Positions 5,561 to 48,693 of a stretch of DNA of 64,000 nucleotides are shown one piece after another. The stretch spans positions 1 through 64,000 of IMG/VR virus record IMGVR_UViG_3300002835_005179; one strand, given 5' to 3'. The translations under genes and the position numbers were made by a program. Numbering within the stretch: the first letter of the stretch is position 1; each line of letters opens with the position of its first letter. The notes under the pieces were generated by a model. That model was not told the DNA's origin. It saw nothing but the letters and a program-made list of their open reading frames with translations, and searched no databases. The DNA comes from a virus (taxonomy: Duplodnaviria; Heunggongvirae; Uroviricota; Caudoviricetes).

Positions 5561-6073
5561 ATGCCATTTAACTTAACAAATTTCAAAGGAGCGTTTGCTG
5601 CAGAAGGCGCAAGACCTACTCTGTTTGAAGCAGATGTTTTTGGAGGAGGGATTGGTCCAGACTTCAAATTCCATTGCAAGGCGGCACAATTACCAGGAAA
5701 GACAATAGGAATTGTTGAAGTTCCTTATTTTGGTAGAAAAATTAAGGTAGCTGGTGATCAAACGTTCGCAGAATGGACTGTAACTGTGATGAATGAAGAA
5801 ACATTCAATGTCAGAAACGCATTCGAAAGATGGATGAGTGGAATTAATGCTCATGTTAGAAACGTGAAAACTGATGGTGGTTATAAAACAACTACAGCTC
5901 AAGTTCGTCAATATTCAAAAGAAGGAACTGTATTAAAGAGATATAATTTCGTCGGAATATGGCCTTCTGATATTGCACCAATAGATGTTTCTTGGGAATC
6001 TAATGATACAATTGAAGAATTTACAGTAACTCTTCAATATGATTGGTGGGAATCAGTTCCTAATATTAATTAA
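5561..6073 (+). CDS. gp19: Tail tube protein (gp19-like)
   Basis: 170 aa, directly after the sheath gene. MPFNLTNFKG..ARPTLFE resembles the gp19 N-terminus. Confidence 0.8.
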   Translation: MPFNLTNFKGAFAAEGARPTLFEADVFGGGIGPDFKFHCKAAQLPGKTIGIVEVPYFGRKIKVAGDQTFAEWTVTVMNEETFNVRNAFERWMSGINAHVRNVKTDGGYKTTTAQVRQYSKEGTVLKRYNFVGIWPSDIAPIDVSWESNDTIEEFTVTLQYDWWESVPNIN

Positions 6074-16913: not shown

Positions 16914-17790
16914 ATAAACTATCCAATTCTTCTTTCGCAATTTCAGCCATCCAATCAATAACGTCAATAACTTCGACATTATCAGAAATACCAGACTCTG
17001 TGAAAGAATTTGTTGTGTAGATCTTATCAAAGTATTTCGATAGATCATCGAATCCTTTCGAGAAGATTCCGTGTGTCACAAACAACCGAAGATTTGGGAT
17101 CTGCAACTTTTCAGCAATACCCAAGAAAGTTCCACCACCATCACAGATATCGTCGATGATATAAGAATTTCGTGTCGTGTCTTTGATTACTGGAACTTCG
17201 AAACCAAGAAATCTGCCAGTAACAGGATCACGTTTCTTTTTGCAGTAATATTTCGGATGATTATCGGAAAGCATATCAGCATATCTATTCTTCGCACCTT
17301 CATCCGGAAAGATAATATTTGCTTCAGGATCAGTTACAAGAATTTCTTGAATAATCTTATTAATCGGAATATCTTTATACTCATAATCAAACCTGTTAGA
17401 ATGACAATCTAAAGTATAGATTTTTGCATATGGCCAGACGCAGGTAATGATATTCAAGAAAACTTTCTTACCGAGACAATCTCCTTCTACGAAGCGACGA
17501 TCGGCTCTTGAATATGGAAGATAAGGAATCACAACAGCAATATTATTGGATGGCATAGACAAAGTAATATCGTTGATTGCATCTTGCAACAGAAGCAACT
17601 TCATTACATCATCGGAATTCTTAATTCGATGAATTAAGACAACACCAAAACACGAAGTCAATGCTTTGATAGTTTCGGGTTTGAGGCGAACCTGAAGTTC
17701 GCCTCCTGGATACTTAAACCACTCGTACGAATTTTCGTCGATACGCAATACATTACGATTGGACACGAACACGCTCCTTAATGGTTTCAA
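16906..17790 (-). CDS. prs: Ribose-phosphate pyrophosphokinase (PRPP synthetase)
   Basis: PRPP-binding loop IIDDICDGGGTF and length 294 aa. Confidence 0.8.
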   Translation of the reverse strand: MKPLRSVFVSNRNVLRIDENSYEWFKYPGGELQVRLKPETIKALTSCFGVVLIHRIKNSDDVMKLLLLQDAINDITLSMPSNNIAVVIPYLPYSRADRRFVEGDCLGKKVFLNIITCVWPYAKIYTLDCHSNRFDYEYKDIPINKIIQEILVTDPEANIIFPDEGAKNRYADMLSDNHPKYYCKKKRDPVTGRFLGFEVPVIKDTTRNSYIIDDICDGGGTFLGIAEKLQIPNLRLFVTHGIFSKGFDDLSKYFDKIYTTNSFTESGISDNVEVIDVIDWMAEIAKEELDSLYV

Positions 17791-19228
17791 ACTTCACTTT
17801 ATTCAGTATACCGTCTTTCAAGATGCAAGTCAAGTCGCAATTTTCAAGTTCTTCGAGAGTCGCTTCTTCCTTACAAATCCAGTTGTTATTTTCTGGAGTC
17901 CAATCTGGAGCCTTGTAGACAGCAAGAATACCTTTACGAGATTTCTTCATTCCAGAATCAGTCTTTGGATCCTTAAAGATAGGAATGATTTTTCCATCTT
18001 TTTCGATAGCAGTCGCCTTCATTGCGAATCCGAAAGTGTCTCTTGTGACATACTCATAAGTATATGACCCGACACCAAACACCATATTATATGGTGAGAT
18101 CTTCAATTTCTCAACGATGCCAGATAGAATCTGGCGTGCACGATCCAACGTAATCGAATCACCATAGATACAACCTGCTTTGTTGATCATACGATTATGA
18201 TCCAAACCAAAAACTTCTTTCAGAAGAGCCAAGACACCAAGATCAGCTGGTCCATTACCTCGTTCTTGAATGCTAGAATTATTCTTGCCTAGTACAATCT
18301 CAACAGGATCACCGGAATCAGGACGAATAACAATCTTACCGTTACGAGCAATGATTTTATCTTTCAAACGAGGCATGAAGTCTGTTAGAACAGTCCACAG
18401 ATCCCAAGTATCAGAAACGATCGAAACGATTCCTTCTGGATAGATATCTTCAACTAGACGACGGAAAGTTTCAAATTCGTCTTCTTTACCACCAGCACAC
18501 ATAACAGAGTGCTCTGTAGCAGGAACAGAAGAACCTGTCGTAGCAATGTTTGCATCATAATAATGCTCAGCTGCTAGAATAGCAGGGATAGTATCAGTTC
18601 CATTGAACGATAGAAGGTGACCCATACCAGAAGCTACTGCATCACCTAGAGACGACATACCACGCATGGAGAAATCGTGGAATTGATAATCGATGAAACC
18701 AAAATCAGTCTCTCCTGCTTTTCGTGCCCATTCCATACCAATCTTACGATATTCAAGAGCAGTCGTTGCCGAAGTGTATGGTTTCCAAATAGATAGAGAA
18801 AGAATCGTTTCTAGGAAATTAGGAAGCCAGAAAGCGTGGTCGACTGTATTGTAAATGACAAGAGATGGAATTCCAATATTAACCGAATATCCTTCCGGAA
18901 TTGCGTAGATGTTAATAGGAAGACGTCCTTCATCATGAAGTGCCTTGATGTGGTCTGTTTTGGGATTCTGAATTCCAAGAGTTTTAGAGATTACACGGAC
19001 ATATTCTGCTTCTACTTCGATCCAAGGTACAGAGAAAAAGCTATTATCGAATTCCTTCAGAAGATCAAGTAGAAAATACTGGTGTCCAAAAACAACAATT
19101 TTTTCAATACCAGGGACACGAGATTTTCGTGCAGTCCAATTTGAGTAGACTCGTGTCACTCCTTCTGGATATTGGCGAACGTGATCAATCTTGTAGAAGT
19201 CTGCTAAGAGAACTGGGATGGTGTTCAT
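17753..19228 (-). CDS. nadV: Nicotinamide phosphoribosyltransferase (NAMPT/NadV)
   Basis: N-terminus NTIPVLLADFYKIDHVRQYP and the block FHDFSMRGMSS. Start set at MNTIP (19228). Confidence 0.85.
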   Translation of the reverse strand: MNTIPVLLADFYKIDHVRQYPEGVTRVYSNWTARKSRVPGIEKIVVFGHQYFLLDLLKEFDNSFFSVPWIEVEAEYVRVISKTLGIQNPKTDHIKALHDEGRLPINIYAIPEGYSVNIGIPSLVIYNTVDHAFWLPNFLETILSLSIWKPYTSATTALEYRKIGMEWARKAGETDFGFIDYQFHDFSMRGMSSLGDAVASGMGHLLSFNGTDTIPAILAAEHYYDANIATTGSSVPATEHSVMCAGGKEDEFETFRRLVEDIYPEGIVSIVSDTWDLWTVLTDFMPRLKDKIIARNGKIVIRPDSGDPVEIVLGKNNSSIQERGNGPADLGVLALLKEVFGLDHNRMINKAGCIYGDSITLDRARQILSGIVEKLKISPYNMVFGVGSYTYEYVTRDTFGFAMKATAIEKDGKIIPIFKDPKTDSGMKKSRKGILAVYKAPDWTPENNNWICKEEATLEELENCDLTCILKDGILNKVKFETIKERVRVQS

Positions 19229-19279
19229 AATTAACCTTTCTTTATTCATTATACTAAATATAGAATCAGAAAGCAAGCT

Positions 19280-20016: not shown

Positions 20017-20283
20017 ATGAAGAAGATTCTTACAGAAGTACAGGGCGAAGGTTTGGTTGCCCTTCTAGGTGAGCATGTGATGTTGTTCTGTGCGAACTAC
20101 ATCTATGCTGGTACACTCACTGGAGTGAACGATACATGTGTCCTTCTAGACGATGCGAAGATTGTTTATGAGACTGGTCCGTTCAGCGATGCGAAGTACA
20201 AGGACGCTCAGAGTCTTCCTACCAAGTCTTGGTATATCCAGACTTCTGCGATTGAGTCTTTCGGCATCGGCAAGAAGGGTTAA
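20017..20283 (+). CDS. Hypothetical protein (88 aa) with Sm/LSm-like motif
   Basis: VMLFCANYIYAGTLTGVNDTCVLLDDAKIV resembles an Sm1 motif (G-x-L-x3-D..hydrophobic-L-x-D). Strong ribosome-binding site and its own terminator. Confidence 0.5.
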   Translation: MKKILTEVQGEGLVALLGEHVMLFCANYIYAGTLTGVNDTCVLLDDAKIVYETGPFSDAKYKDAQSLPTKSWYIQTSAIESFGIGKKG

Positions 20284-20285
20284 GT

Positions 20286-20319
20286 GATGGGGGATTTAAA
20301 ATCCCCCATCCTTTTATTT
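20286..20319 (+). terminator. Rho-independent terminator
   Basis: GATGGGGGAT-ttaaa-ATCCCCCATC followed by CTTTTATTT. Confidence 0.75.
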
Positions 20320-20421
20320 GTTCTATGAAAAATATGTTTACAAGAGAACTTGTAAAAATATTGCATCTAGATCTGGTTCTAATTCATCTGGTTGGTCGGT
20401 AGCAACTTGGACTCCTACATC

Positions 20422-20607
20422 ATGAAGAAATCAATTTACAAAAGAAATATTGGGTCTAGGTCTTGGTCTGGGTCTAGGTCTTGGTCTTGGTCTGGGTCTT
20501 GGTCTGGGTCTTGGTCTGAGTCTAGGTCTAGGTCTGAGTCTAGGTCTAGGTCTGAGTCTAGGTCTGGGTCTGGGTCTGGGTCTTGGTCTTGGTCTAGGTC
20601 TAACTAA
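20422..20607 (+). CDS. Ser-Xaa dipeptide-repeat small protein, copy 1 (61 aa)
   Basis: Leader MKKSIYKRNIG, then (S-[RWGE])n encoded by (TCTNGG)n, ending RSN-TAA 4 nt before the next ATG. Confidence 0.5.
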   Translation: MKKSIYKRNIGSRSWSGSRSWSWSGSWSGSWSESRSRSESRSRSESRSGSGSGSWSWSRSN

Positions 20608-20611
20608 AAAT

Positions 20612-20854
20612 ATGATAAAGAAATCAATTTACAAAAGAAATATTGGGTCTTGGTCTAGGTCTGGGTCTAGGTCTGGGTCTGAGTCTAGGTCTGAGTCTTG
20701 GTCTTGGTCTGGGTCTGAGTCTAGGTCTGAGTCTGGGTCTTGGTCTAGGTCTTGGTCTGAGTCTTGGTCTAGGTCTGGGTCTGGGTCTAGGTCTAGGTCT
20801 AGGTTTAGGTCTGGGTCTAGGTCTAGGTTTAGGTTTAGGTCTGGGTCTAACTAA
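20612..20854 (+). CDS. Ser-Xaa dipeptide-repeat small protein, copy 2 (80 aa)
   Basis: Leader MIKKSIYKRNIG plus the repeat, ending GSN-TAA. Confidence 0.5.
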   Translation: MIKKSIYKRNIGSWSRSGSRSGSESRSESWSWSGSESRSESGSWSRSWSESWSRSGSGSRSRSRFRSGSRSRFRFRSGSN

Positions 20855-20858
20855 AAAT

Positions 20859-21083
20859 ATGATAAAGAAATCAATTTACAAAAGAATTATTTGGTCTAGG
20901 TCTGGGTCTGAGTCTGGGTCTAGGTCTTGGTCTGAGTCTGGGTCTTGGTCTTGGTCTTGGTCTTGGTCTGAGTCTTGGTCTGGGTCTAGGTCTTGGTCTG
21001 GGTCTGGGTCTTGGTCTTGGTCTGGGTCTGAGTCTGGGTCTTGGTCTAGGTCTAGGTCTGGGTCTAGGTCTGGGTCTAACTAA
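20859..21083 (+). CDS. Ser-Xaa dipeptide-repeat small protein, copy 3 (74 aa)
   Basis: Leader MIKKSIYKRIIW plus the repeat, ending GSN-TAA. Confidence 0.5.
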   Translation: MIKKSIYKRIIWSRSGSESGSRSWSESGSWSWSWSWSESWSGSRSWSGSGSWSWSGSESGSWSRSRSGSRSGSN

Positions 21084-21087
21084 AAAT

Positions 21088-21123
21088 ATGATAAAGAAAT
21101 CAATTTACAAAAGAATTATTTGA
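21088..21123 (+). pseudogene. Truncated fourth copy (leader only, MIKKSIYKRII-stop)
   Basis: Same leader DNA as copies 2 and 3, but it runs into TGA with no repeat array. Confidence 0.4.
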
Positions 21124-21165
21124 TCAATGTAGTATAATTGTATACAACTGACAAGGTTATTAATA

Positions 21166-24145: not shown

Positions 24146-24220
24146 GCGCTTGTAGCATAATGGTAATGTAGAAGATTCTAAACCTTCGAGATGAGAGTTC
24201 GATTCTCTCCAAGCGCACCA
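24146..24220 (+). tRNA. tRNA with anticodon CUA (amber suppressor type), CCA encoded
   Basis: - Acceptor stem GCGCTTG/CAAGCGC.
- D arm GCAT-AATGGTA-ATGT.
- Anticodon stem GAAGA/CCTTC with one A-C mismatch, loop TT-CTA-AA.
- Variable region GAGAT.
- T arm GAGAG-TTCGATT-CTCTC.
- Discriminator A followed by CCA. Confidence 0.8.
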
Positions 24221-43208: not shown

Positions 43209-44012
43209 AATACGAGAAAGACGATTATTTTTTCTAGTTTCTACCATTTGAGATTTTTGTTTCAAACTAATAATTCGTCCTGGAATAAGTAAATGATTTG
43301 TATCGTCGATATGTTCTAGATCCTTTACTTTAATAAATATATTTTTTGTCCCATCATTATACCACTTCCCTCCCTTATTATTTTTCTTATTTTTATTTTC
43401 TATCAAAGAGGCGGACCGTTTTTTCTTCGTTTCTTCAGATTGTTTTTTATTAAAAGAAGGATTTTTAGAACCCAATTTAGATTCAGACATATTTTTTTTC
43501 TGTTTATCGGTTCTTTTTTGTCCGACGACATATGTATTGCCCAATTTAGATAAACCCATTTTCTTACGGTGAATTTCAGATTTTCTTTTACCTAGTAGTG
43601 CAGCAGATATTTCGGCTTTGGTTTCTGGAGTGTGGTTCTTTCCATACCTAGGAGACTTTTCTCCAGTTTTTCCATACATAGGAGACTTTTCTCCAGACCT
43701 TTTGTCTAGTGCTTCCGGAGTGTATTTATAACCAGACACCCCTTCCCCGCCATCGGTCTTATTTCTCAGGATTCCTGTTCCTAGATCTTTTCGACCATAA
43801 AACTGTATTAGTCTTATTTCTTCGTCGAAGGCTTCTGATTCTGACAGATTTTCGAAGAGAATAGATATTCTAGAAGATTCAACAGGACGAAATCGTCTCT
43901 TACACCAGGCTCTGTTACCCTGACCTTTTCCAATATAATATGGAGTCCCATCTTCTCTTAGAAAAGCATAGACATAGAATCTGGCTGGGTCTTTATAAAT
44001 AGTTTTAGACAT
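43191..44012 (-). CDS. Free-standing GIY-YIG homing endonuclease with NUMOD3-type repeats
   Basis: FYVYAFLREDGTPYYIGKGQGNRAW, followed by GEKSPMYGKTGEKSPRYGKNHTPETK. Start set at MSKTIY (44012), preceded by GGAGG. Confidence 0.8.
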   Translation of the reverse strand: MSKTIYKDPARFYVYAFLREDGTPYYIGKGQGNRAWCKRRFRPVESSRISILFENLSESEAFDEEIRLIQFYGRKDLGTGILRNKTDGGEGVSGYKYTPEALDKRSGEKSPMYGKTGEKSPRYGKNHTPETKAEISAALLGKRKSEIHRKKMGLSKLGNTYVVGQKRTDKQKKNMSESKLGSKNPSFNKKQSEETKKKRSASLIENKNKKNNKGGKWYNDGTKNIFIKVKDLEHIDDTNHLLIPGRIISLKQKSQMVETRKNNRLSRISDNKV

Positions 44013-44077
44013 ATAAGCTACCTCCCAAGTAGTTTGTGTGTTCAGATGGGAGAAAGCGAACACTTTCTCCCCATAAT

Positions 44078-45062: not shown

Positions 45063-46463
45063 TTAGAATTTGAAATTATCGAAGTTCTTCTTATATTTCG
45101 AAGAACCATATCCTGAATCAAATTCACCATAATTATTATCCTGATAAGGATCTTGAATACCACCTTCTCCATCAATCTGAATATCACCGATATCAAATAA
45201 TCTCATCTTAGATCTATCAATACCAACCAAGAATTTCTTATTCTTAGTCACATCATTATATCTATTCTTCAACTGTTTAATCATCAACTGACCAAGTTTT
45301 TCTAATTCTTCTGTATTAATTAGAGCAATCATGAAATCGCAAGTGGCGGCGACGCCGAAACTTTCTGCAATATCACCCATACCAGCATCAGAATCAGACG
45401 CTCCAGATCTCGTAAATTGTGATGCGGATACGATCGGAAGATTAGCTTCTACAGCAAGACCACGAACTTCTTCAGCAATAGACTTAACCAACATATAAGA
45501 ATTTACTTGACCGTTATTCTTAATTCTTGAAGAAGCACAAATATTCAAATAATCAATATAGATAATATCTGGAATAAACTTCTTCTTTAGAGCAAGTTCA
45601 TGTAGAAGATATCTGAAGTGTGATACGTTGGCTGAACCAGTTGGATATTCCTTGATAACCAACTTGCCTGGTGTTCGACTTTCTAACTTATTAATTAGTG
45701 ATAAGAATTGTTTCTTAGAAATTTGTTTTAGAGTATCTAAGGTAATATCCAATAGATTCGCATCAATTCTCTCGGCGATTCTTTCTTCAGCCATTTCACA
45801 TGTAATATACAAAACATTCTTACCATCAAGAACATTAGAAGCTGCCATATGACACATCGCCAAAGTTTTTCCAGCATTAACACCACCAAGAATTAAGTTT
45901 AGCGTTTTTCTCGGAAGTCCTCCACCAGTAATAAGATTTAAATTCTGGATATCAAAACGAATTCTCTCTTCTTTCTTATGATAAAATTCAAATCTTGTTT
46001 CTGCATCAGAAACAAAATCATGACCAACTGATGGATCGAATGTAATTGCAAGAGCTTCTTTAAGAATTTCAGGAATAGAACCTTTATCTCTAGTATCTTT
46101 TTCATCAGATATAATCTTAATAGAATCTAAGATTGCATTATGCAATGATTTTTCTTTACAAAATGATTCAGTCTGTTTGATCAAGAATTTTAAATCAGTT
46201 TGCTCATTCTTCGACCAAGAATCTAATAGATTAGATATTACTTCTGAGTCTTCAATTTTAATCTTCTTAGATTCAGAAGTCATAATCTTAATAGCTTCTA
46301 CGGAAGCTTGTTTATTATATTCTGTGACAAACGAATTAATGAATTTAAATATACTTCTATCATTATGATCCGAAAAATATTCAGACTTTAGAAAGGGTAA
46401 TACTGATCTAGTATATTCTTCGTTATGTAAGAGATTCTTTAAAACCAAATGTTCAATTTTCAT
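45063..46463 (-). CDS. gp41: Replicative DNA helicase (gp41, DnaB-like)
   Basis: Walker A GGVNAGKTLAM and DnaB-type blocks. Start set at MKIEHL (46463), preceded by AGGAGAA. The longer track ORF reads into the degenerate repeat. Confidence 0.9.
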   Translation of the reverse strand: MKIEHLVLKNLLHNEEYTRSVLPFLKSEYFSDHNDRSIFKFINSFVTEYNKQASVEAIKIMTSESKKIKIEDSEVISNLLDSWSKNEQTDLKFLIKQTESFCKEKSLHNAILDSIKIISDEKDTRDKGSIPEILKEALAITFDPSVGHDFVSDAETRFEFYHKKEERIRFDIQNLNLITGGGLPRKTLNLILGGVNAGKTLAMCHMAASNVLDGKNVLYITCEMAEERIAERIDANLLDITLDTLKQISKKQFLSLINKLESRTPGKLVIKEYPTGSANVSHFRYLLHELALKKKFIPDIIYIDYLNICASSRIKNNGQVNSYMLVKSIAEEVRGLAVEANLPIVSASQFTRSGASDSDAGMGDIAESFGVAATCDFMIALINTEELEKLGQLMIKQLKNRYNDVTKNKKFLVGIDRSKMRLFDIGDIQIDGEGGIQDPYQDNNYGEFDSGYGSSKYKKNFDNFKF

Positions 46464-46674
46464 AATTAGTTTTCTCCTGTGATAACGACCAAGAATTAGA
46501 GTCTGAACCTGAGCCTGAAGAAGATAAATTTGCAGACCAAGATTCTGATTTGGGTATCTCTCCGGACCAAGACCAGGATCCCGATCTGCGTGAATTTCCA
46601 ATTCCACTCCATGATCCAGAAAATAAACGAGTCCAATATATATATTCTGATTTCTTTCTTAATTTGTGAATCAT
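46453..46674 (-). CDS. Diverged Ser/Gly/Trp-rich small protein (73 aa), member of the Ser-Xaa family
   Basis: Basic leader MIHKLRKKSEYIYW followed by SGSWSGIGNSRRSGSWSWSG.., using mixed Ser codons (tct, tca, agt, tcg, tcc). It has an ATGA overlap with the upstream gene and an 11-nt overlap with the gp41 start. Confidence 0.55.
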   Translation of the reverse strand: MIHKLRKKSEYIYWTRLFSGSWSGIGNSRRSGSWSWSGEIPKSESWSANLSSSGSGSDSNSWSLSQEKTNYEN

Positions 46675-46865
46675 AAATTGGATGTCCCGGATTTAGAACC
46701 ATATCGATATCTACTGTCGGTAATCCATGATAGATAATGATTAGATTGGCCAGACTTAGAAGATAAGAAGATACTCGAAGAGGTTCCGCATCTATGGAGA
46801 CCGGAGAAGAACCTCTTCTTGGAATTAAATCTCAATCTAATAGATTTTCTTTTTGTTGTTAACAT
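46671..46865 (-). CDS. Diverged Ser/Gly-rich small protein (64 aa), member of the Ser-Xaa family
   Basis: Basic leader MLTTKRKSIRLRFNSKKRFF followed by an S/G-rich tail with mixed Ser codons. Confidence 0.5.
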   Translation of the reverse strand: MLTTKRKSIRLRFNSKKRFFSGLHRCGTSSSIFLSSKSGQSNHYLSWITDSRYRYGSKSGTSNL

Positions 46866-46896
46866 ATTTCCATTTATCTTGAATAATCTAGAATAA

Positions 46897-47064
46897 TTAA
46901 TTTCCAGACCTAGACCAAGACCTAGACCTAGACCTAGACCAAGACTCAGACCTAGACTCAGACCTAGACCAAGACCCAGACCTAGACCTAGACCTAGACC
47001 AAGACCAAGACCAAGACCCAGACCTAGACCAAATAATTCTTTTGTAAATTGATTTCTTTATCAT
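46897..47064 (-). CDS. Ser-Xaa dipeptide-repeat small protein (55 aa)
   Basis: MIKKSIYKRIIW leader plus a (TCTNGG)n repeat, ending SGN-TAA. Confidence 0.5.
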   Translation of the reverse strand: MIKKSIYKRIIWSRSGSWSWSWSRSRSRSGSWSRSESRSESWSRSRSRSWSRSGN

Positions 47065-47068
47065 ATTT

Positions 47069-47275
47069 TTAGTTAGACCTAGACCCAGACCTAGACCTAG
47101 ACCAAGACTCAGACCTAGACCCAGACCAAGACCAAGACCCAGACCCAGACCAAGACCTAGACCTAGACCCAGACCAAGACCCAGACCCAGACCCAGACCC
47201 AGACCAAGACCAAGACCCAGACTCAGACCTAGACCTAGACCCAATATTTTTTTTGTAAATTGATTTCTTTATCAT
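47069..47275 (-). CDS. Ser-Xaa dipeptide-repeat small protein (68 aa)
   Basis: MIKKSIYKKNIG leader plus the repeat, ending RSN-TAA 4 nt before the next ATG. Confidence 0.5.
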   Translation of the reverse strand: MIKKSIYKKNIGSRSRSESGSWSWSGSGSGSGSWSGSRSRSWSGSGSWSWSGSRSESWSRSRSGSRSN

Positions 47276-47289
47276 ATTACAATTATAAC

Positions 47290-47628
47290 TTATTTTGTAA
47301 TATTAGTCAACTGGGAATCATTTGCATGCAAAATAGCATATTCTAATATCTTCTTAATTAATTTCTTGACAATTTGAATCAGAGTTTTATCATTACTGGA
47401 TACATTATTGGGAGAGTACACAACTGTCATATCAAACGTCAATATAGAAGAATCTTCTTCTTCACAAGTTATATCTGTTATTTCTATAATAGTTTCTTTA
47501 TGTTTTCCTTCATCTAATCTCAATAATATCTTTTCGTTATTGTTGTGTTCTGTAATAAAGAACGATGCTTTCATATCTGAAAATGGTACTATCTTATATG
47601 ATTCTTCTTTTTGTTTAGTATTTTTCAT
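47290..47628 (-). CDS. Hypothetical acidic protein (112 aa)
   Basis: Track ORF lying between UvsX and the repeat genes. Confidence 0.45.
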   Translation of the reverse strand: MKNTKQKEESYKIVPFSDMKASFFITEHNNNEKILLRLDEGKHKETIIEITDITCEEEDSSILTFDMTVVYSPNNVSSNDKTLIQIVKKLIKKILEYAILHANDSQLTNITK

Positions 47629-47652: not shown

Positions 47653-48693
47653 TTAGTCCTCTTCTGCATATTCTTCCGTTGTTTCATCTTCTACAATCTT
47701 ATTAGATAACTTAAATTTATAGATAACATAATCTTGAAAAGTTTTATCTTGCATAATAGATTCCCAAAAATCTTCAGTATTTGTGGCATCTAATCGATAA
47801 TTCTTATCTTCTCCTACTTTTTGGTACCATCCATTTTTTGGCTTGATTACATGTCCCGATTCCAAAGCGAGATCCATCAATCCAGAATATTTACTAATTC
47901 CGTCATTGAATTTAACTTGAAATGTTAATTTACTCTTCTCTTTTACGAATCTAGATTTCTCAATGTTGATAGTAAAATTATAACCCACTAGATCGGTACC
48001 ATCTTTTTCTTGTGTGCGTGTTACAATAAAAATCTGATTTGCAGAATATGTCACTGATGTACCACCACCAACGACGGCTTTAGAGTAGAGCTCCATTGTA
48101 GCATAAACGTGATTTATTACAAGACAAGGAATATCTTTCATAGTAAGATGGGGAGTAATGATTCTCAACAATGATCGAATCGATTTTGCTCTGGTCATAT
48201 CTGCAACTGATTTTTCATCAACAGCATCATCTACTTCTTTCTTAGAAGAAAGCGATCCTAATGAATCAATCATGACGAATACTTTATCACCACGTTGTAT
48301 TTCATTCAATCGTTTGACTATATCAAATTTAAGTTGTTCGATATGTTCGATTGGAATATGAATGATTCTAGAAGCGTCGATTCCATACATCTCAAGATAT
48401 TCTGGTGTAATACCAAACTCAGAATCATAGAGAAGTGCTACGGAATCTTCATACTTATCAAAGTAAGCCTTCATACAATAAAGAGAAAGAAGTGTCTTGT
48501 ATGACTTTGATTGTCCGGCAACTACAGTTAAACCTGGAACTAGACCACCATTCAGATCTCCAGAAAATGCAATATTTAAGATAGGAAGTTCGGTGCTAAT
48601 GCAATCTTTAATATTGAAGAACGATGATTCGGATAAGATCTCTGCGTTTTTTACAGATCCTGCTTTTTGTAATTTGTCTAATAGTTTACTCAT
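47653..48693 (-). CDS. uvsX: Recombinase UvsX (RecA-like)
   Basis: Walker A-like VAGQSKSYKT (compare T4 GPSKSFKS) and a RecA-fold block VFVMIDSLGSL. Confidence 0.9.
   Translation of the reverse strand: MSKLLDKLQKAGSVKNAEILSESSFFNIKDCISTELPILNIAFSGDLNGGLVPGLTVVAGQSKSYKTLLSLYCMKAYFDKYEDSVALLYDSEFGITPEYLEMYGIDASRIIHIPIEHIEQLKFDIVKRLNEIQRGDKVFVMIDSLGSLSSKKEVDDAVDEKSVADMTRAKSIRSLLRIITPHLTMKDIPCLVINHVYATMELYSKAVVGGGTSVTYSANQIFIVTRTQEKDGTDLVGYNFTINIEKSRFVKEKSKLTFQVKFNDGISKYSGLMDLALESGHVIKPKNGWYQKVGEDKNYRLDATNTEDFWESIMQDKTFQDYVIYKFKLSNKIVEDETTEEYAEED

Follow-up and report, generated by a model that had tools for sequence, protein, structure and literature searches.

Four small open reading frames (ORFs), g2a to g2d, occupy positions 46453..47275 on the minus strand of the window studied here, 64,000 nucleotides of an uncultured T4-like myovirus of low guanine-cytosine content (GC, ~33%; IMG/VR record IMGVR_UViG_3300002835_005179, positions 1 to 64,000). 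We conclude that this region, which directly precedes the gene for the gp41 replicative helicase, is very probably a cassette of four translated mini-genes belonging to a phage-specific (Ser-Xaa)n family, in which g2a and g2b represent young copies with homogenised repeats, g2d an old copy that escaped homogenisation and is under purifying selection for Ser/Gly/Trp, and g2c a largely decayed copy. A second set of such genes (locus 1, plus strand) lies in the same window beside the gene for p88, a small Sm-fold protein. We consider the account developed below, taken as a whole, the best explanation of these data and hold it with moderate confidence.

The original prediction, made from the letters of the window, had named these four ORFs as family members, and each was recovered in the window with its position and sequence (Table 1). 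Three are solid members; g2c is placed in the family only by its leader and position, so that a count of four is generous. The units of g2a comprise 25 TCTNGG, two TCTGAG and a terminal TCTAAC, and those of g2b 18 TCTNGG, two TCTGAG and one TCTGGA. The description of both as pure TCTNGG arrays thus holds for nearly all units and is slightly overstated. Both leaders begin MIKKSIYK(K/R).., the arrays form a period-6 repeat of 55.8 copies at 46906..47241 (Tandem Repeats Finder, TRF), and six copies of the 25-nt leader DNA are present in the window, versus none in 100 shuffles. Serine in the two arrays is encoded only by TCT, alongside GGG (with one GGA in g2b), AGG and GAG, and the sole other serine codon in these genes is one TCA per leader. 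The predicted retention of Ser/Gly/Trp in mixed codons was borne out by g2d, whose serines are encoded by TCA (8), TCT (8), TCG (2), TCC (2) and AGT (1) and whose glycines are encoded by GGA, GGC or GGT. Its tail carries 13 S.S motifs in 45 residues, the highest number outside the pure arrays among 371 window ORFs. The g2c tail (Ser 15/64) lacks regular alternation and has three S.S motifs in its best 45-residue window, against a 95th percentile of 3.5 for the same ORFs. About 20 or more Ser-Xaa units are thus found in g2a and g2b and, in part, in g2d (13 motifs), and the three motifs of g2c lie at background.

All four ORFs have a basic leader, and their lengths of 68, 55, 64 and 73 residues were taken as family-like against an interquartile range (IQR) of 55–70 residues. 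Both g2c and g2d match the leader motif M-x(0-5)-[KR]KS[IVLE][YRK], with [KR]KS[IE][YR] shortly after the methionine; this motif, composed post hoc with family members already in view, is confined to seven family ORFs among 653 Met-started ORFs of the window. The overlaps that had been proposed can be read directly: g2c and g2d share ATGA at 46671..46674, and the last 11 nt of g2d are shared with the start of gp41.

The TCT-NGG repeat is open in four frames, and N is four-fold degenerate whether the repeat is read in the +1 frame (GGT CTN, Gly-Leu) or antisense (CCN AGA, Pro-Arg), so that variation restricted to N could reflect purifying selection in another frame. Three independent results, all taken from sequence comparison, exclude such selection: the identity of the serine triplets, the base composition at N, and the architecture of start, leader and stop. 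The constant triplet was examined in p88-anchored arrays, chosen without any condition on their codons. It is uniform within an array and differs between phages, being TCT, TCG, AGC, TCC (contig L182) or TCA (L137, L204). Five of the six serine codons are therefore represented, and no non-serine triplet was seen in ~70 unrelated contigs of 31–66% GC. Read antisense, the same triplets would specify Arg, Arg, Ala, Gly or stop, and in the +1 frame Gly with Leu, Arg, Ala, Pro or His/Gln after it. At N, G (~40%) and T (31%) are equally frequent in low-, mid- and high-GC phages, and the A:C ratio shifts with GC class (100:0, 64:36 and 34:66, respectively); only the Ser-Xaa frame makes A and C at this site synonymous (AGG/CGG, Arg). 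Since a neutral four-fold site would track GC, this composition speaks against both the +1 and the antisense frame.

Four features that accompany the arrays are in register with the Ser-Xaa frame: the conserved start (ATG or GTG), the basic leader, the ATGA coupling to p88 and the stop directly after the array. Real frameshifts occur about once in ~1,400 units (L162); a spacing test for frame-changing indels gave modulo-3 counts of 20/26/23, in which almost every out-of-frame case proved to be a motif match in the wrong register or to come from beyond the arrays. In g2d, a hand count of the unit slots revealed that serine is kept in 19 of 21, that the third position has changed in 11 of 21, and that all seven glycine codons have moved off GGG to those preferred by the genome; its +1 frame reads LDHGVE.. 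rather than Gly-Leu. These findings support the proposal that the Ser-Xaa frame, and not the Gly-Leu frame or the DNA repeat, is the selected product, on stronger evidence than was available to the original prediction.

Codon usage within the arrays is extreme. GGG, AGG and GAG account for 5%, 4% and 15% of their synonymous families in long ORFs of the window versus ~100% in arrays, and the minor Xaa codons (GAG, AAG, TTG, GTG, ATG and CAG) each derive from NGG by a single second-position change. Units of one array are alike everywhere but at N, even at the synonymous third position of serine, a pattern that would result from concerted evolution by slippage. Because units copy each other and tryptophan has only TGG, glycine would be held at GGG and arginine at AGG/CGG; a GGA founder unit would have excluded tryptophan, as it would yield TGA. 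NGG usage can accordingly be accounted for without any DNA- or RNA-level function, and an RNA constraint could coexist with this explanation. Roles of the DNA repeat as a primase site (GGGTC/TGGTC), a G-quadruplex or an NGG protospacer-adjacent motif were dropped, since the motif becomes TCG- or AGC-NGG in other phages with the peptide unchanged.

The family extends well beyond the window. A degenerate leader pattern retrieved eight viral contigs with MIKKSIYKRNIW-(Ser-Xaa)n ORFs of 52–71 residues, and the bare TCTNGGx5 pattern matched more than 117 viral contigs, most of which contain small, often tandem ORFs composed of a short basic leader (for example MITKRTKWRR, MVTKRTKYRS, MIRGKKQKW or MKRSLKQKW), an alternating serine array and an immediate stop. 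Pooled loci yielded 154 distinct genes with a median length of 63 residues (IQR as above). Their composition is 40% Ser, 14% Gly, 13% Arg and 12% Trp, with Gly (33%), Trp (27%) and Arg (26%) as the main Xaa residues; the leader has a median of 11 residues, one third of them Lys/Arg, and the median net charge is +9.5. After the leader, Ser alternates with Gly, Trp or Arg over about 20–28 units. The stop codon follows the array within 0–2 residues in 115 of the 154 genes. At p88-anchored loci arrays range from two units up to seven tandem genes, and some phages carry only 2–3 units. A structure model of the peptide showed no secondary structure (predicted local distance difference test score, pLDDT, 55), and the peptides had no match in Pfam or PHROGs.

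Public gene calls omit the array ORFs or pick the Gly-Leu frame. In public contigs of the same phage (L205–L217), array regions are either empty or filled by Gly-Leu ORFs that run into the next Ser-Xaa gene, and several assemblies end inside arrays. The sole GenBank phage record with the module recovered by p88 tblastn, the environmental, unverified MW202825.1 (L124, 5395..6010), leaves p88 and the first Ser-Xaa ORF (5649..5831) unannotated and lists the second (5828..6010) as hypothetical protein UOF82383.1. Full-text literature queries with peptide strings and with Sm-like, phage and repeat themes returned no description of the family, which is widespread in phages and apparently undescribed. 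As a separate observation, leaders of the KQK[YW] type (L165, L203, L171) keep the codons AAA CAA AAA even at 54–58% GC, and this A-rich start region may be conserved at the RNA level.

The most consistent feature of these loci is p88. The 88-residue protein, encoded upstream of locus 1, is 93% identical in contig L006, where it likewise directly precedes Ser-Xaa genes, and a homologue was found by tblastn beside the arrays in ~40 loci retrieved by the DNA repeat alone. For the reverse search, 303 viral p88 loci were confirmed and 80 fetched, of which 77 were informative; a Ser-Xaa ORF lay just downstream in 76 of these, across 31–66% GC and p88 identities down to ~60%. It starts from a few to ~100 nt past the p88 stop, frequently with an ATGA overlap. 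By this linkage, the Ser-Xaa family is the variable partner of a conserved p88. The p88 family itself is large, comprising at least 287 clusters when grouped at 90% identity and 530 representatives at 50%, and all members are listed as 'hypothetical'.

p88 had no match among Pfam (including LSM), PHROG or PDB sequences. Its predicted fold, in which an N-terminal helix precedes a five-stranded antiparallel β-sheet with a strong bend, corresponds to that of Sm/LSm/Hfq proteins. Family profiles detected no Sm1 or Sm2 motif; a loop-3 Asn and a Lys-Asp pair are the only reminiscent features. The family is acidic (net charge 0 to −5, mean −2.8), and its conserved residues are mostly aromatic (F24, Y28, Y30, Y51, W72, Y73) or acidic (E11, E52, D63, E80), together with N38 and K62. 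Some homologues (P0121, P0126, P0157) contain two tandem domains in one chain, a hint that p88 may oligomerise; no natural fusion of p88 to a Ser-Xaa peptide was present among the long homologues inspected. A BFVD fold search returned only uncharacterised small barrels. Among 185,579 bacterial species genomes p88 occurred in only 10 short contigs of metagenome-assembled genomes, and it therefore gives no prophage or host clue.

Locus 1 consists of three tandem Ser-Xaa genes, is covered by the second TRF array of the window (20453..21078, plus strand) and adjoins rIIA/rIIB. Ahead of it lies a decayed Ser-Xaa copy that uses codons typical of the genome (AGA, GGT) and whose TGA overlaps the ATG of the first gene, g1a; decayed copies are thus present at both loci, the other being g2c. 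A promoter-like GT(T)ATAATTGTA motif borders both (21132..21142, plus strand; 47278..47289, minus strand) and, by analogy with the PeSL cassettes discussed below, may serve as a site of recombination or shuffling. Strains with 100% identical p88 carry two, three or four genes at locus 1 with altered Xaa order. At locus 2, g2a and g2b are fused in frame in L212 by a 163-nt deletion attributable to unequal recombination, and in L218, at 99% gp41 identity, g2b is replaced by one different array gene, (SGSW)n. g2d is identical in every strain found, L218 included.

The nearest relatives with sequence at this position (L219 and L220, 76–77% gp41 identity) have no Ser-Xaa genes between the p112 homologue and gp41: the former is followed by TAAG(C/G)TATAATAGTTATA(G/T)T and the gp41 ATG, with TATAAT directly before gp41. 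In the window, GTTATAATTGTAAT and then the g2a ATG come after the stop codon of p112, and the −10 box of a sigma-70-like promoter match ends 6 nt upstream of this ATG. On this comparison, the cassette is an insertion specific to this lineage, placed after a promoter-like −10 box and before the gp41 start, and is acquired rather than ancestral. No credible terminator was found between the −10 box and gp41, the only matches being the arrays' own G-U hairpins. Because it sits between this box and gp41 without such a terminator, the cassette is most likely transcribed with gp41, and the overlap of g2d with the helicase start would permit translational coupling. The proposal that the family lies inside the replication operon thus agrees with the sequence, with the qualification that the insertion is absent from the nearest relatives.

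We propose that arrays change by slippage and by unequal recombination between hexamers, which would account for their uniform codons and for the strain-level changes in copy number and Xaa order. The peptides would be disordered polycations, with Arg and Trp as 'stickers' and Ser and Gly as 'spacers', acting with the acidic, aromatic-rich p88 encoded 26 kb away. A p88 oligomer would bind the basic leader or the repeats and build a multivalent, RNA-directed complex early in infection, for which peptide composition and length would matter and Xaa order would not. The points behind this mechanism are the p88 linkage, charge complementarity, the unstructured peptide model, and the constant W:G:R ratio and length. 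That the peptides and p88 form a multivalent nucleic-acid-binding complex is nonetheless a doubtful, if possible, step. The broader picture is plausible and offered tentatively: a two-component module, in which an acidic Sm-fold protein is accompanied by one to seven tandem hypervariable (Ser-[Gly/Trp/Arg])n genes that would serve as detachable RNA-binding or condensate 'tails' in host takeover, with the second cassette placed in the helicase mRNA leader.

Several observations weigh against this interpretation. At locus 2 the upstream neighbour is p112, and p88 is not adjacent. The atypical array codons would also fit a constraint at the nucleic-acid level. The loop-3 Asn and Lys-Asp pair recall the Sm nucleotide pocket, and p88 may bind RNA rather than peptide. 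The ratio of nonsynonymous to synonymous substitution rates gave no information for g2c and g2d, all homologues found in viral and metagenome scans being 99–100% identical; in L218, g2c has two nonsynonymous and no synonymous differences. A search of 5.8 billion proteins with the peptides yielded 2643 word-sharing candidates, none of which scored, a result weakened by the gene calls described above and to which composition filtering may contribute. The neighbours of the loci differ between phages and include no conserved gene pointing to a pathway.

The alternative that the repeat RNA or DNA is itself functional, as a platform for p88 or as a structured element that tunes the downstream gene (gp41, or rIIA at locus 1) at the level of stability, termination or translation, with translation of the array incidental or serving only to keep the RNA unstructured, appears unlikely. 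It would explain why NNG is near-invariant at Xaa in all GC classes, with GGG at 95% or more of glycines even at 60% GC, why GAG, AAG, TTG and GTG are preferred there, and why array codon usage is so extreme for the genome. It is also in keeping with the G-U self-pairing of the arrays, which are flagged as hairpins, with the usual RNA binding of Sm/LSm/Hfq proteins, with the AAA CAA AAA codons kept in KQK[YW] leaders at 55–58% GC, and with the stabilisation of RNA carrying the gene 41 5′ region by the T4 mutant GoF(D25Y) (PMC12152347). However, a pure RNA or DNA spacer is not expected to be limited to five serine codons, TCN and AGC; the share of each base at N is set by the amino acid and not by the base; and the self-pairing GGUCU is absent from TCG and AGC arrays. 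In g2d the peptide pattern persists although NGG and the repeat are gone, an Rfam scan found nothing above noise for the arrays, and NNG is accounted for by the single Trp codon and concerted evolution. A product in the Gly-Leu frame of the same strand or the Pro-Arg frame of the opposite strand is extremely improbable. Both frames are open through the arrays with N four-fold degenerate in each, and gene callers return 115- and 146-residue Gly-Leu ORFs fused to the next gene, but neither frame has a conserved start codon, the flanking genes are all co-directional with the Ser-Xaa frame, and the second residue varies between phages (L/R/A/P/H/Q in +1; R/A/G/stop antisense). The GC-independent composition at N and the LDHGVE.. 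reading of g2d point the same way.

Among readings that accept the peptides, a quite unlikely one makes them toxic or membrane-active cationic Trp/Arg peptides, acting in host killing, lysis timing or superinfection exclusion, with p88 as chaperone or neutraliser. Their Arg and Trp content and charge of ~+9.5 resemble, from general knowledge, those of Arg/Trp-rich antimicrobial peptides; p88 is uniformly acidic, locus 1 lies beside rIIA/rIIB, and with its own terminator p88 could be regulated in stoichiometry with the peptides. The serine content of 40% and the lack of a hydrophobic segment or signal peptide argue against this role, as do the absence of a conserved lysis gene nearby in other phages and promoter matches that point to early rather than late expression. 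That the arrays are selfish or neutral microsatellites in dispensable ORFs, with diverged copies as pseudogenes on their way out, is very unlikely, although array copy number and length fluctuate from one near-identical strain to another, the cassette is missing from the nearest relatives, decayed copies flank both loci, arrays shrink to 2–3 units in some phages, and the g2c differences in L218 are all nonsynonymous. Neutrality would leave unexplained the p88 linkage across 76 of 77 loci at the identities and GC contents given above, the constant W:G:R ratio and narrow length distribution, and the serines retained in g2d, and ~800 nt of junk before an essential gene is not expected in a deletion-prone phage genome. 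We favour translated Ser-Xaa peptides that may act with p88.

Known systems resemble parts of this arrangement. Eukaryotic Sm proteins (SmD1, SmD3, SmB, LSm4) and SR proteins carry disordered Arg/Gly- or Arg/Ser-rich tails that mediate multivalent binding. The phage pair likewise joins an Sm-fold core to a basic Arg/Ser/Gly dipeptide-repeat region, but its repeat is a separate, multi-copy, hypervariable gene in which Trp is a major residue, and there is no sequence homology. Pathological C9orf72 GGGGCC expansions are translated from an intron by non-AUG initiation into poly-GA, -GP, -GR, -PA and -PR, and the Arg-rich products bind RNA and enter condensates; there too a 6-nt repeat is open in several frames and gives alternating dipeptides, whereas the phage arrays are bounded genes with ATG, leader and stop, conserved across phages, with one frame selected. 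PeSL cassettes, reportedly described by Arbiol et al. in 2010, are said to be small T4-type ORFans with early-promoter and stem-loop flanks that shuffle between hyperplastic regions. The GT(T)ATAATTGTA borders of both loci and the terminator hairpin after p88 would be analogous, but PeSL denotes a mode of mobility and not a gene family. Simple-sequence contingency loci of bacteria and phages share the slippage-prone repeats and rapid strain variation; here, in contrast, the 6-nt unit alters length and composition rather than frame, and no on/off switching was seen.

Closer to the phage itself, GoF, like MotB.1 and Frd.2, is an early T4 protein with an LSm-like fold, and GoF(D25Y) acts on RNA that bears the 5′ region of gene 41 (PMC12152347). 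p88 is similarly a small phage β-barrel, and the position of the GoF(D25Y) target corresponds to that of the cassette, but the GoF-family proteins have two domains and ~120–140 residues and lack associated repeat genes. A relationship of p88 to GoF and MotB.1 was rejected on hhalign probabilities of 0.3% and 0.2%, respectively; no phage LSm-like proteins other than these two and Frd.2 are known to have been described. A precursor of ribosomally synthesised and post-translationally modified peptides was also rejected: no Pfam family of maturation enzymes occurs among the varying neighbours, and p88 has an Sm fold rather than a PqqD-like one. So was a type III toxin–antitoxin system, with its 34–36-nt repeat RNA upstream of an endoribonuclease toxin, since the period here is 6 nt and the arrays lie downstream of the protein gene, each as an ORF. 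For a diversity-generating retroelement, neighbour Pfam lists contained no reverse transcriptase, for which no dedicated search was made; N varies over four bases and no template is evident.

In the window, the minus-strand order is DNA polymerase, UvsX, p112, the four small ORFs and gp41 (Table 1). The helicase is 50–56% identical to gp41 of cyanophages, pelagiphage HTVC008M and Methylophilales phage Melnitz; its ATG at 46463 is backed by homologues that align from residue 2 and is preceded by AGGAG 10 nt upstream. Among 50,697 phage records, megablast found nothing similar to the locus. p112, which is kept in relatives without the cassette, was rejected as a second Sm-like partner, being unrelated to p88. 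Elsewhere, the window encodes a complete, permuted two-piece transfer-messenger RNA (tmRNA) of alphaproteobacterial type, suggestive of an alphaproteobacterial host and of interference by the phage with ribosome rescue, and a tRNA with anticodon CTA, which would decode the amber codon. Two ORFs downstream of gp41 lies a 290-residue ORF with a GIY-YIG-like N-terminus and an internal 30-nt tandem repeat, probably a homing endonuclease. p88 adjoins an NAD-salvage and nucleotide block comprising NAMPT, a phosphoribosyl pyrophosphate (PRPP)-synthetase-like protein, nucleoside deoxyribosyltransferase, dCMP deaminase, UvdE and a Band_7 protein.

Table 1. Coordinates of the two Ser-Xaa loci, their neighbours and other features of the window
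Feature	Position	Strand	Basis or remark
gp41-type replicative helicase, downstream of cassette	45063..46463	-	Homologue identity; Pfam DnaB_C
g2d, diverged Ser-Xaa paralogue, leader MIHKLRKKSEYIYW	46453..46674	-	Mixed-codon S/G/W
g2c, family-like leader MLTTKRKSIRLRF	46671..46865	-	Leader motif and position
g2b, Ser-Xaa mini-gene, MIKKSIYKRIIW followed by 21 units	46897..47064	-	ORF list, unit parse
g2a, Ser-Xaa mini-gene, MIKKSIYKKNIG followed by 28 units	47069..47275	-	ORF list, unit parse
Sigma-70-like promoter match, TTGACT-17 nt-TATAAT	47282..47310	-	11/12 consensus; consensus match only
p112, 112-residue ORF, upstream of cassette	47290..47628	-	
UvsX	47653..48693	-	Context gene
p88, Sm-fold, usual partner of Ser-Xaa genes	20017..20283	+	Homologue searches
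Intrinsic-terminator-like hairpin and T-run, directly 3′ of p88	20286..20320	+	
Decayed Ser-Xaa copy, ..YVYKRTCKNIASRSGSNSSGWS.., TTG start only	20318..20425	+	
Locus 1, three tandem Ser-Xaa genes	20422..20607, 20612..20854, 20859..21083	+	
Truncated fourth leader MIKKSIYKRII*	21088..21123	+	
Promoter-like GTATAATTGTA, after truncated leader, upstream of rIIA	21132..21142	+	
NAD-salvage/nucleotide block	17753..19276 and upstream	-	Pfam list on L205/L206
tRNA, anticodon CTA	24146..24220	+	ARAGORN label 'Pyl'; Rfam tRNA 64 bits
tmRNA, permuted, two-piece	37828..38207	-	Rfam RF04321 99.9 bits, RF01849 92.9 bits
290-residue ORF, GIY-YIG-like N-terminus	43191..44063	-	
30-nt tandem repeat inside the 290-residue ORF	43639..43696		

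These results would add a protein family and a gene-pair architecture that are hidden from current annotation, in which the ORFs are skipped or misframed, assemblies are broken, and composition filters probably remove the sequences from searches. The arrays provide a natural example of how the selected frame can be shown in a hexanucleotide repeat open in several frames, and of how a single-codon residue, Trp, can dictate the synonymous choice of its neighbours through concerted evolution. They also suggest that phages may use sticker-and-spacer peptides in the manner of eukaryotic low-complexity proteins. Should the peptides prove toxic, they would constitute a new class of phage effectors; should p88 and the peptides act on RNA, they would represent a new post-transcriptional route of host takeover.

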